Part shown: in pieces, positions 27,250 through 33,438 of the stretch
Numbering within the stretch: the first letter of the stretch is position 1
How the letters are laid out: each line of letters opens with the position of its first letter
From: Catajapyx aquilonaris
Taxonomy: Eukaryota
Reading direction: 5' to 3'
Length of the DNA stretch: 34,458 bases
Assembly: GCA_000934665.2 (NCBI GenBank)
Contig: JYFJ02004552.1
Coordinates: forward strand, 1 to 34,458
The notes under the pieces: model-generated
Databases searched by the model: none
The model's input: the letters and a program-made list of their open reading frames with translations, nothing else
Told to the model about the DNA's origin: nothing
Position numbers and translations under genes: made by a program

Positions 27250-28171
27250 CCCCTATGTTTTTCCCAGTCCGCCTGGCCGCTAATGTCCCGTCCTTTTGCC
27301 TCCGTCCCGTCCGCCTTCGCCACGTATGTGGTCCAGGACACTGCCCTCACCCGGGTAACCGCCCTGGAAGCCGCCCCGAGCCCGCCCGACCCCAGGTTGG
27401 CCTAGCGCACGTACTTCTCCGACCCTCTCCTTCTCATACTTGCCCATACCTTCTCATACTTTGTCGCGAGCGGCAACCTTTTCGTAAATTGACACACGGC
27501 AGGAAGCGGCGTTTTGCCGCGCACCCGCATGCCGCGACGACTTGCAGTTTGCGGTGTGAAGTCGCGTTATAACGCGAAAAGGGAATTCGTAAAACAGCCT
27601 TAATATGAGTTAGGAGGACAGTACTACACTGCATTTGACCTACTCAAACTACAGAATATTTATACAACAATATCGATTGTACAACGCCACTCTGTAATTC
27701 AGTTATTGACTAACACCAACGATACAATATGCACACAACTTGACAGATATAGTGACATTGTCTAATTAACAATACAACACAGTCAACTCACACCAGACCC
27801 AACTATAAACTATTCCTGATCACAACACTCAAAAGGCAACAGTCACATGTTTCAATATCAGTGTCTTAACTCAAACAAATTCTATCAAGCTATCCTCGCC
27901 ATACACGACCTCCCTTATTTTATTATTTTGGCTTCTCCACCGACGCTTGACCAGACAAGACGTGGGAAAAATCGAGCTCCGTACTAGGGTGCATATAACC
28001 AGGACGCAAGGGCAGGTTGGCCTCCTGGGCAAAGGCCTGGTTTAGTGGCTGTAGTGGCCTCCCCAGGGGCCACACCCGTCCAAAGGGTGAGTGTGATCAG
28101 TGTTAATTACCGCCTAATTATGGTCAGGGCGAACGGATACTGATAATTTACTTTCAGCATTGGTCGAGAAA

Positions 28172-29423
28172 ATGGGGAACGACGTAGTCCAATGGCGGGC
28201 GGCTCTGCCAAGGGGTCCAGGTTCAGCACACAGCTCGACAAGGACCATGGCTGCCCGGAAGGACAGCGTAAAGGGAAGGAGATGGATCCTCTGCCTGTTG
28301 CTGCTGATGGGAGGAGCCTTTTTGACAGGACCACGAGCATACGAGGGCGGCCTCAAGAAGGAAGTGGATCAGTGTGTGTTTGCTGGGAAGGGTGTAATGG
28401 GTGTGTCTAGGGTCCTGCAGGGTGACACGCTTGGCGTCAAATTGTTCACCCCCCCAAACACTGATTAACGTGTTGTTGAGGCGGGGTGGAGTGGAGATCA
28501 ATCCTGGTCCCATAACCGGACACTCCCCCACGGGTTTAAGGATAACGGGGGTAGAAGGCGATAAGGAAAAGGAAGTGGTTCCGATCCCTCTTGGATTGCA
28601 AGCAACCCCTTTATCTACGATGGCATCCGCAAAAAGGACAAGGTCAGAACTTACTCCAGAACAAGTGATACAACAAGAAGACCTAAAGAGCTATGTAGTC
28701 GATTTAGCTAAAACGATGTCAGACAAATGGGATAATTTGGCCAAGGTTATGTCGGACAAAATGGATAAATTTATAGAAGGCTGTAGGGAAGCAATAGAAC
28801 ATAATAAGAAGGAAATTCAAGGCCTTAAAAAAGAGTTAAGAGAGAAGGACGAGCAAATTAATCAGTTATGGGATAAAGTAACGGATCTGGAAGACAGACA
28901 GAGGGAGGGAAATCTAGTATTTTTTGGCTTGGATACCAGCCCGGCTATGCCGGCGACAGACTGTAGAAGGGCGCTAAACGAGCTGTTCCACACCAAGTTA
29001 AACATTGACCCGTCAAAGGTGTTCATAGACAGAGTGCATGTCCTAGGGAAATCTTTAAGACCACCAATAATTGCCAAGATCCCATACTCGCTGGACCGCA
29101 CACAGATTTTGACCAACGCAAAAAAACTGAAAGGCACATCAATATCGATATCCCAAGACTACTCACTGAGGACTAGAAGTGCGAGAAAGTCACTGTGGAA
29201 AGAAAGACATGTGTTAGGCCCAAACGCAAGTTATGTTAAATTAGTGAAGGATAAACTGATAATCGATGGAGCTACGTATAGGGTGAAGGGTGACACAATT
29301 ATAGGGCCAAAGGGAGAACTTATAACGCAAGAGCTGGGGCAAGACTCAACGAGTAGGGCAACGCATGGAGAGGCAAGCGGCTATAGTGGAGAGGATACTC
29401 TTCGGGCACAAGCTGACTCTTAA
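28172..29423 (+). pseudogene. LINE ORF1: hydrophobic leader + 2A-like motif + L1-type coiled coil/RRM/CTD; frame switch in C7 run 28449-28455
   Basis: MGNDVVQWRAA...RWILCLLLLMGGAFL; LLRRGGVEINPGP; DLEDRQREGNLVFFGL; KKLKGTSISISQDYS. Confidence 0.85.
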
Positions 29424-32400
29424 TACCGGCCCCCCCTAACAAAACAGTATCCAAGAGTCAGAAACGGCATACTCGGTTACCAACCCCAACGAAAATAATA
29501 ACATGGAACATTGCTGGGCGCAAAATGGTGGAGTGTTTTGCCGAATTGGGAGTAAGAATGGAGGGAAGGAAAATATTAGCTTTTTTGGATACGTGGAAAA
29601 ATAAAAATAAGAAAGGGATGTCGGACTCGCTACCGAAAAGTCTTAAAGACAAAGTCAGGGTTTATGAGGCCCCGGCCAGAGGGACAGGGGCCAGACCTTC
29701 TGGAGGAATCTCAGTGGCGATAAACACCAAACTAAAACATGAAGTTATTCTGTTGGATCCATATTGGTGCATGTTTTATTTACATCTGTCCTATGGTAGA
29801 GTGTTACGGGTGACAGCATATTTGCCTCCAAACTCTAATTATACGTTGTATATTAAGCAACTGAGTAACTTAGTTCAGGAGAATAGGAGAGAAGGGGAAC
29901 CAATACTAATAACGGGAGATCTGAATGGGAGAATTGGAGGATTTGAGAACTTAATAGAGGGTCAAACCAACTGCAAGACACCCAGACAGACCAAAGACGA
30001 GGTGGTTAATGACAGGGGTAAATTGCTGATTAAACTCATGTCAAAATTTAATCTGACACCTCTCAATGGAGCACTGGCGGACAAATCATCTGAGGAATTT
30101 ACGTATGTGGGGTTAGGAGGGAATAGTACAATTGATCTAGGTCTGTTATCAAATGCCCATTTAGACCTGGCAATAGATATGCAAGTATTGGAAACGAACA
30201 TTTCCGATCATTTTCCAACCGAGATAAATTTGGACGTCCAGACCTCAGGCAGGGAGGAAGGGGGCCAAACAATAACAAAATTTATGTATAATGAAGGGAA
30301 GTTCAAGAACTTTTGGGAATCCTCGAAATACTTGGAAGTGCTGGACACATCAAAAGTGGATCAAATCAAATTTATGAAAACCTTACAAGGGGCCCTGATC
30401 GAGGCGGGGCTAATTAGAGAATTGAAGATCCGCCCATTGAATAAGTCGTTGCCGTGGATTGATTCGGAGATCAAAGGATTGAGAAAGGGCCTAAGAAAGG
30501 CATTGGAACTAGCAAGACAGAAGAATAATTCAGAAGAGTAATATAATAATAATAATATCGTACCCCATTGAAGCCGTTCTGGCTTTTTAGGGGGGAGATT
30601 TGTTTTTTTGGCTGGAACTCTTGTAGACTTTATTTCACTTTTTGGGACGGGATAGGGATGGAATGAAGCGGCTGTGGCCTATTAACTAGGAAACAACTCC
30701 GGTATTCACCTGGAGGAACCGTGGGAAACCACAGAAAACCACGGTCAGAGTTGCCGGCACCGGGATTCGAACCTCGAACCCAGGACCTCCCGATTAGCAG
30801 GCGGACTCCATATCCACTACACCAACCTGCTTCGGTTAATTCAGAAGAGTATAATGTATATAAACAGCGAAAAAAAGAGCTAGGGATAATGCAGGAAAAA
30901 AGAGGCAGGACCACTTTCAAAAGATATATCAGGCGTTATTGGACTCCAACTCACAAGGGGAATTTTGGACCCAACTCAGAAATTTCTCAGATAGAGAGAG
31001 GATATGTCAGGGAATCACGGAACAGCAATGGAGACAACACTTTGCAAGCGTCTTCGGGCAAAGAGGAGAGGATAAGTTATATACAGGATGGCGGACAAGA
31101 TCACTTAGCTTAGTGGCCCATTTTGATGATGCGTTTTCAATGCAAGAGCTGAACTTGGTGCTGGGTTCAATGCAAACGAAGTCAGCACCGGGTCCGGACC
31201 TGGTTCCGAACGTGGTGTACAAGATAGACCAAGAACAATGGAGAAGTCAGCTTCTAGCGATTGTAAATCAGGTCTATGAGACAGCAATAATACCTGCGAA
31301 TTGGGCGAATAGTAGAGTAGTACCTATCTTCAAAAAAGGAAATCCTAAGAACCCATCAAACTATCGTCCTATATCACTAATTAATAATATAATTAAGGTC
31401 ATCACGTCACTATTAAACAGAAGGCTAAATACATTCTTGGACACTAATAATATTATACCAGAAGAGCAGAACGGGTTCAGAAAAGGGAGGTCAGCAGTCG
31501 AGCACATCTTTTCACTCTTGGCACTGATCCAACTAAGATTAGCAAAAGGAGCGAAAGTGTACGCAGCATTCATTGACTTGGCTCAGGCTTTCGACTCGTT
31601 AACGCATGCACTACTGTTTAATAAGTTGGCGGAGATGGGGATTTCTAGCAAATTCATAAGGATAGTAGAAGCTATATATGAGAAGATGGAAATTACGCAG
31701 ATAGATAAATATAAACTGGAGGAGAATATAAAGGTGAGATCGGGAGTACTGCAAGGAGATGCACTAAGTCCAACACTTTTCAACAGTTTTTTATCGGACC
31801 TTAAACAGTTTCTGAATAAGAACTCAGCGCCAGGAATTCGTATACCTACCACAAATATGGAGATTAACTTTTTACAGTATGCGGACGATTTAGTGTTACT
31901 AGCAGATAATCCCCTTTATCTTCAAAAATTACTTGATTTATTGGACACATACCTGGCTGAGAAAGAACTCAAGGTAAATTCCGATAAAACGAAGGTAGTG
32001 GTCTTTAGAAGAGCGGGAAGATTGAAGGCGGCGGATAGATTTAGGTTAAGTGGACTGAAGTTGGAGGTGGTTCCAGGCTACAAATATTTGGGGGTTACAT
32101 TTAAACATAATTTAAACTTTAAGGAACATGAACAAGAAAAATATAGGCAAGCTCTAAATACGATTAATGCCAGTTGGCCAACACTAATTAGAGCCTAATT
32201 ACCTAAGTTCAAACAGCATTTTGACTTCCTGGATTTAAAAATACTACCTATAATGGGCTATGCCGAAGAGGTCTGGGCACTTAATAATTCTGACTCACAC
32301 GAGAAGATTCAAAGAGCCTTTATAAGGAAATTATATCTGCCAGGTCTGAAGGTGGCGAACTTTTTCTTAAGACTAGAAACAGGTAGAATTCACTTAGAAT

Positions 32401-33077
32401 ATAGAGTAATAAAGTCCATAATAAGTTGGCTACTACATTTAAGTAAACTGAATGACTCCAGACTACCGAGAGTATTCTCAGAAGCATTGTACAAGCAATA
32501 TAGCGAGATAGGTCAAGAGGGGATTAAATATAACTGGGTGACACAAGTAGAATCAGTATTCAAGAAATATGGATTTACTATGAGAGAGATATTAAATAAT
32601 TGTAACAACAAAACCCCAGGCGGAAACGCTAGCATTGTACAAAACATTAAAGACCAGCTGAGAATGAGGGACATTGAAGCACTTAACCGTTCAGAAACGT
32701 ACAGATATTATATTGACATACACTCCTCACCTAACCCATCTGGATACTTATTATCAACGAATTTATCTTTAACTAATAAGAGGATAATATTAGCCATAAG
32801 AAACAATAGTAACTGGATCCCTCTGACACATGTCTCCTCTTTAACAATAGAGCCGGACAACTTATGTACAATTTGTGGCCAATCCAATAGAGAGAATTGG
32901 TACCACATCATTTTTGAATGTAGAATCTTAGAACAAAGAAGGAGGGATGTAAACTTAAATAATGTGTCCAGGTCCCAATTCTTGGTCGAGTTGGGTGATA
33001 TCAGTAATGAAAAGTTTGAAATTGTAAAAAGGCTATTAAATACCTATTATAGATATAAAAGATTAAGTGAAGACTAA
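29417..33077 (+). pseudogene. LINE ORF2: AP endonuclease + RT + C-terminal CCHC; disrupted
   Basis: TWNIAG, GDLNGRIG, SDHFP; SAPGPD, NYRPISL, GVLQGDALSP, YADD; CTIC...HIIFEC. Disrupted by a SINE at 30541, a frameshift near 30900 and a premature TAA at 32196. Confidence 0.95.
30541..30836 (-). mobile_element. tRNA-derived SINE (family SC) inserted in LINE ORF2
   Basis: A-box TGGTGTAGTGG; duplicated B-box GGTTCGAGGTTCGAATCCC; (TTA)n tail; 15-bp TSD TAATTCAGAAGAGTA (30526-30540, 30837-30851). Confidence 0.92.
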
Positions 33078-33438
33078 AATAATAACAGTTAAAGTAAATA
33101 AATAAATAAAAACAGAGGTTTTAATACACAGGATATGAGGAAAGTAAATAGACCACGGCGTTCCATAAAGAAAATTGTCGAGGTGGTGAAGTCCGCCCCC
33201 ATGTTAGGGGGGCGCAAAAGTGCTATGTTTTTCTAAAGGATGTAACAATATGTCAATAAACTTATTATTATTATATTATTATTATTATTATTTTATTATT
33301 TTACTAATCGCTACCTAGGAACTATAGTCGCCGGGAAGCTGGCGTGCAAACAGGTCTAGCACTTCCTCCGCTGTGACCTCTATTTCACGGTGTACGTGCA
33401 ACAAGCCCAATACCACAAGTCGCTCCTCGCTCATTGTG

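Follow-up and report, generated by a model that had tools for sequence, protein, structure and literature searches.

A WR-type leader with a signal-like core and a StopGo motif ahead of LINE ORF1p and unrelated proteins in Catajapyx aquilonaris

Why would a LINE place, ahead of its first protein, a 112-residue leader that carries a signal-like hydrophobic core and ends in a 2A (StopGo) motif? The question is raised by the window, a 34,458-nucleotide stretch of Catajapyx aquilonaris DNA (contig JYFJ02004552.1).

The element and the reading frame of its leader

The window holds a full-length APE-type LINE (27930-33287, forward strand), in which APE and reverse transcriptase domains, a target-site duplication and a 3' tail are all present; judging by its post-RT motifs, it may belong to the RTEX clade. 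The 15-bp target-site duplication is identical on both sides (27915-27929 and 33288-33302), and the 5' end, followed by the 5' UTR (27930-28171), starts at the same point in 8/8 other matching loci, two of which (L007 and L009) have one common flank. The leader begins in a strong Kozak context with MGNDVVQWR (28172-28198), an M..WR motif common to 11 leader types of the genome. A basic patch (28247-28282) lies upstream of a hydrophobic core of signal-peptide length, WILCLLLLMGGAFL (28283-28324; residues 38-51), followed by a C7 run (28449-28455) that frameshifts this copy and by the 2A core GVEINPGP (28488-28511), where the predicted skip falls between 28508 and 28509, before the final proline. 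Downstream lies an L1-type ORF1p (28509-29423), with the coiled coil-RRM-CTD architecture expected of that type; a profile of 108 relatives matches human LINE-1 ORF1p (2ykp, E 7.7e-15). ORF2 comprises an APE endonuclease part (29417-30541; Pfam PF14529, E 2.4e-8), with no Met ahead of the first APE motif, and a reverse transcriptase with a C-terminal CCHC-like region (30864-33077; Pfam PF00078, E 1.6e-38). AATAAA, a (TTA)n tail and the 3' target-site duplication end the element (33255-33302).

This copy is dead: the leader is frameshifted, ORF2 is split by a SINE-like insertion on the minus strand (30540-30837, with a 13-bp duplication at 30527-30539 and 30838-30850), and an in-frame stop lies at 32196-32198. 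The SINE assignment is based on a tRNA-like B box read by eye, and ARAGORN found no tRNA. Its tail is a TTA/ATT repeat that resembles the LINE's own tail.

Searching the genome with the leader region gave nine matches, window included, four of which end at contig ends before the C run. The other copies that span the run (L002-L005) all have six C's, and in each the leader is in frame through NPGP into ORF1; GVEINPGP is present in 5/5 copies that reach the 2A site. These results bear out the proposal of the first-pass annotation that, once one C is removed from C7, a leader and 2A are fused to an L1-type ORF1. Of the outcomes that it named as refuting, two are contradicted, since the leader is in frame in other copies and NPGP is conserved. 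Because the four spanning copies read through with C6, this fusion is the natural state of the LINE family. The extra C of the window may be a mutation or an assembly error. Frameshifts are common in otherwise young copies (L002, L024, L025, L075, L078, L082, L087), several at homopolymer runs, and part of them may likewise be assembly errors.

Substitution patterns show purifying selection on the leader as a protein, looser than that on ORF1p. Across four independent pairs, leader pN/pS is 0.22 in the window's family (family A), 0.45 in B, 0.49 in C and 0.43 in a NACHT pair, with a pooled value of 0.42 (Fisher p 4e-6), and the pooled signal survives an eightfold weighting of transitions (binomial p 0.002 at kappa 8). 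The ORF1 body has a pN/pS of 0.29 in B and 0.15 in C. Synonymous changes make up 12/20 of those in the family A leader, including all 3 that are shared between copies; in family B the shared leader changes are 8 synonymous and 9 not, over 79 and 257 sites.

Further observations concern the sequence on either side of the leader-ORF1 frame. A 5' UTR intron at 28088-28157 was rejected because the AG that would serve as its acceptor occurs in no copy but that of the window. A splice-donor-like GT[AG]AGT lies no more than 130 nt upstream of the leader ATG in 5/9 leaders read by eye (28088-28093 in the window, and upstream of the L069, L074, L080 and L081 leaders), at a background of ~6% per leader, and no conserved acceptor for these sites was found among the leaders examined. 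At the other end, ORF2 stays in the ORF1 frame past a single stop in many related families, with or without a 2A (29417-29440 in the window; L014-L017, L019-L021, L024, L028, L029, L034, L036-L038). Such same-frame ORF2s are mostly without a Met ahead of the first APE motif, with TAG-CAA in family B and TGA-C in D and E, an arrangement that suggests readthrough of the stop. The C run at the family A junction varies in length (7 in the window, 9 in L002).

Anatomy of the leader and its recurrence in the genome

From its M..WR start the leader passes through the basic patch to a hydrophobic core of 12-14 residues, which begins at residue 35-43 and in the window ends ~60 residues ahead of the skip site. 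In family A, net charge is +5 in the 20 residues before the core and 0 in the 20 after it, and the hydrophobic 12-mer is equalled in 0.29% of 20,000 shuffles of leader residues 1-91. An ER signal peptide or anchor has a basic n-region and a hydrophobic core of 7-15 residues, and by this definition the leader has the two. A transmembrane anchor would call for a favourable helix of ~19 residues, which family A lacks, its best 19-mer scoring +3.6 and its best 12-mer -2.3 on an insertion scale; on the same scale the best 19-mers of the long leaders range from -1.3 to +3.7. The first-pass description of a membrane- or signal-like leader is supported in that a signal-like core keeps its position across families, with the correction that its length is that of a signal peptide and short of a full transmembrane helix.

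The design is not confined to one family. The motif [VIM]ExNPGP occurs at 48 genomic sites, versus 5 for the reversed control; by our judgement 29 of the 48 belong to TE or NACHT frames, the other 19 to short, chance-like frames. Within the 460 nt upstream of the motif, an M..WR start is present at 24/29 TE or NACHT sites versus 1/19 chance-like sites, the five exceptions among the former being two contig ends, two OTU elements and one NACHT copy. These 24 sites represent the 11 leader types: seven LINE ORF1 families, one probable LINE (L075, putative cargo), NACHT ORFs (L100, L101), a THAP/P-type transposase locus (L098) and a MULE-linked frame (L097), where the leader heads a C2H2/FAR1 frame upstream of the MULE transposase. 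At L097 and L098 the leader and the catalytic part are encoded in different ORFs, which we assume to be spliced together.

In 10/10 long leader types (three of them read from frameshifted copies) residue 35-43 marks the start of the core, with net positive charge ahead of it. W and R are invariant in 11/11 aligned leaders, partly by selection. The distance from WR to the core is conserved, while that from the core to the 2A varies from ~35 to 75 residues among the long types; the MULE-linked leader is a short form, its core running into the 2A. Outside these features the leaders are unalignable among types and moderately constrained. Recent capture of LINE 5' ends by transposase and NACHT genes was considered and lacks support, since the long types share no DNA similarity beyond the 2A core. 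At ten loci of 2A-less ORF1 families there is no comparable core (best KD13 at most 1.14, versus 1.8-3.0 in intact M..WR leaders); the 2A-less locus L029 has a WR-like start. The leader has no match in Pfam or PDB (best E 0.12 and 0.41) and no usable match in the ESM Atlas, and word-index homolog searches with the full ORF1, the leader alignment and a short outside leader returned nothing, which is weak evidence.

Among the NACHT genes, L099, L100, L101 and L103 (a partial relative) are intron-less ORFs of 1,900-2,100 residues, two of them in tandem on one contig, and some have an OTU domain directly after the 2A. A further element (L102:1684-6964) combines a 2A and an OTU domain with a Ulp1 protease ORF further downstream, and has no WR leader.

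The 2A motif in published work and in other genomes

Published work already covers the 2A, the variant with G and the position ahead of ORF1p; what appears to be undescribed is the conserved design of the upstream leader and its spread over unrelated gene classes. The expanded StopGo core is reported as (D/G/C/N)(V/I)ExNPGP, in which G can stand for D, is functional and is equally common among viruses (Li et al. 2026, PMC12846837). GVEINPGP matches this core exactly, so that the replacement of D by G, which the first-pass annotation had found surprising, is real and is no surprise; the published data set is viral, and the hexamer upstream of the window core is VLLRRG. A 2A before an L1-type ORF1p, also taken as unexpected at first, has been reported in ticks and a mollusc (bioRxiv 10.64898/2026.06.17.732966 = PMC13405545). 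There, as here, the 2A-like motif lies upstream of the coiled coil in a CC-RRM-CTD ORF1p, G-type cores were among those tested, and 70% of ORF1p-linked 2As lowered protein level. Its table includes one mollusc ORF1p and one cockroach protein with a WR-like start. The available part of its text covers the 20-mer only, without the word "transmembrane", and does not describe the WR start, the core at a fixed position, the spacer of 35-75 residues or the MULE and P-type transposases seen here.

Other comparisons lie further away. In sea urchin (Strongylocentrotus) NLRs, which share NACHT cargo with the genes described here, a signal combined with StopGo gives dual targeting, to cytosolic and secretory products (Roulston et al. 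2016, PMC4981915). The 26-residue 2A is itself the signal in that system; in our leader the core is separate, follows a WR/basic region of 35-40 residues and lies ~60 residues before the skip site. N-terminal 2As are likewise known in APE-type LINEs (Odon et al. 2013, PMC3708506), nearly all of them in ORF2, 40-80 residues from the start and mostly in elements without ORF1, and the single ORF1 2A of that study (L2A-1_NVe) was inactive and lacked the key E. Hundreds of retroelement 2As have been reported, mostly of middling activity (10.64898/2026.09.24.754024). In the literature searched, mostly open-access papers, we found no account of a WR/basic/core leader and no 2A on MULE or P-type transposases; the available parts of PMC12338488, PMC3894237 and PMC11203168 hold nothing on the leader.

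How probable is skipping at the window 2A? Its peptide is absent from the published supplementary tables searched, it has three leucines at -19 to -10, and the RR before GG is unusual; in family B the helix upstream of the 2A is leucine-poor. Among 32 published peptides with an intact GGVExNPGP (from 37 of 39 GGVE rows, the 5 with a broken NPGP left out), 16 skip, 3 fall off and 13 do not skip, and 3/7 skip in the window's register, xxxLIxxLLxxGGVExNPGP. A fair expectation is that partial skip activity would have about an even chance of being seen in a 20-mer assay in human cells.

Related leaders occur in other genomes. A 2A-like motif is present in 86 of the best 150 outside ORF1 relatives (75 with D, 8 with G, 3 other). 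A WR/FR-type start is found in at least 23/86 of these (two loose matches), a hemichordate being a named carrier, and in at least 2/64 of the remainder, both with variant 2As; the counts are lower bounds because many records are N-terminally truncated. Most outside leaders are short (54-74 residues), and in most the core adjoins the 2A. The closest outside cluster includes P0154, which has a long, separated leader and a G-type core. A quick ORF1 tree of 69 rows, preliminary, weakly supported and compatible with one origin or not, groups families A-E with the two closest G-type outside relatives (SH-aLRT 89).

What might the leader do?

The reading that we prefer, tentatively and at somewhat less than even probability, is that the leader directs translation to the ER and that its 2A then serves as a partial StopGo gate ahead of ORF1p. 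The core would leave the exit tunnel ~60 residues before the 2A is decoded, and SRP would dock ribosome and mRNA on the ER. On skipping, the leader would be left in the membrane or lumen, and Pro-ORF1p would enter the cytosol right beside the ER and could there coat its own RNA. A chain that fails to skip would pass into the lumen and be unavailable for retrotransposition, and stalled ribosomes would cut ORF1p output further, so that the net role would be to localise translation and to ration a potentially harmful protein, whatever the cargo. The exit tunnel is filled by ~30-40 residues, ribosome and translocon together are spanned by 65-70, and unskipped 2A chains behind a signal enter the ER (PMC2978324); with these lengths, the core of the long form should be exposed by the time the ribosome reads the 2A. 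In Ty1, SRP-bound ribosomes translate the RNA, and such ER-linked translation can still matter for particle nucleation (PMC3945221). We favour this model because the leader is in frame in 4/4 copies, is selected as a protein and holds its core at a fixed position, because 2A-less families have no such core, and because the cargo is as diverse as a MULE region, a THAP/P-type transposase and the long NACHT ORFs.

Several points count against docking followed by gating. With 35-40 residues, the n-region exceeds what is usual in signal peptides, the model does not account for the invariant WR motif, and a WR-like start occurs in the 2A-less locus L029. About half of similar peptides skip, and the RR before GG and the leucine-poor helix of family B add to this doubt. 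Moreover, the MULE-linked leader and most outside relatives have no spacer between core and 2A, so docking before skipping cannot be general.

An alternative that we regard as unlikely is that leader and 2A are purely a throttle: the 2A would stall or drop ribosomes, the hydrophobic leader would destabilise the nascent chain, and output would fall without any real ER step. Reduced protein is the main phenotype reported for ORF1p-linked 2As, and the OTU domains that follow the 2A in two gene types here echo a remark on deubiquitinases in the same preprint (bioRxiv 2026.06.17.732966). A throttle gives no reason for keeping a core preceded by positive charge at residue 35-43, far from the 2A, and the window 2A, with only three leucines in the stretch before it, also speaks against it. 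The freed leader could instead have a job of its own, either as a small protein of the membrane or as a basic WR peptide released by intramembrane cleavage. The invariant W and R, the fixed WR-to-core spacing next to a variable core-to-2A spacing, and the related starts outside, two of them in ORF1s with variant 2As, fit this idea, which we nevertheless find quite doubtful given the lack of any Pfam, PDB or Atlas match, the unalignable and moderately constrained remainder of the leader, and the unrelated cargo genes.

The first-pass annotation had suggested that partial skipping could yield, next to free ORF1p, a membrane-targeted or secreted form that gives RNPs access to membranes; in this model unskipped ORF1p might also bring them to vesicles. 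Liposomes are bound by ORF1ps, for which roles at membranes have been proposed (PMC3905857), ORF1p trimers could mix fused and free chains, and in families E, F and G topology could be reversed by another hydrophobic stretch ahead of the 2A. No second transmembrane-like stretch is present in family A, where fused ORF1p is predicted to be luminal, apart from RNA, because positive charge precedes the core. Because luminal ORF1p cannot coat cytosolic RNA, and because transposases and NACHT proteins, which form no such RNPs, share the leader, this idea is weakened, and we give it little credence. Least probable, in our estimation, is that the 2A is inactive here or that the leader is a mitochondrial bipartite presequence. 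Bipartite presequences have a basic N-terminus and then a core, and the leader resembles them; its low N-terminal hydrophobic moment (0.07-0.34) and acidic residues do not fit. Inactivity would agree with the 13/32 similar peptides that do not skip and with the inactive ORF1 2A of Odon et al., though that one is without the key E, and is opposed by an ExNPGP intact across all families.

Returning to ER docking and gating, a broader version, which we consider possible and on the unlikely side, is that WR, basic patch, signal core and StopGo form a portable and ancient N-terminal cassette in animal retrotransposons, DNA transposons and NACHT genes. It would bring ribosomes to the ER, skipping efficiency would choose between active cytosolic protein and luminal disposal, and WR would be bound by a factor on the ribosome or translocon side, a role so far unrecognised.

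The leader bears on why cellular and transposon proteins carry N-terminal 2As at all. To our knowledge, published 2A screens test only the last 20-30 residues, and in this genome the upstream 90 residues have a conserved design. Because the signal-like core is physically apart from the 2A, separate mutations can be made in targeting and in skipping. If the ER-docking model is true, translation of LINE ORF1p would take place at the ER surface, a single dose-control device would serve selfish and immune genes that are otherwise unrelated, and 2A screens that lack the native leader would misjudge activity.
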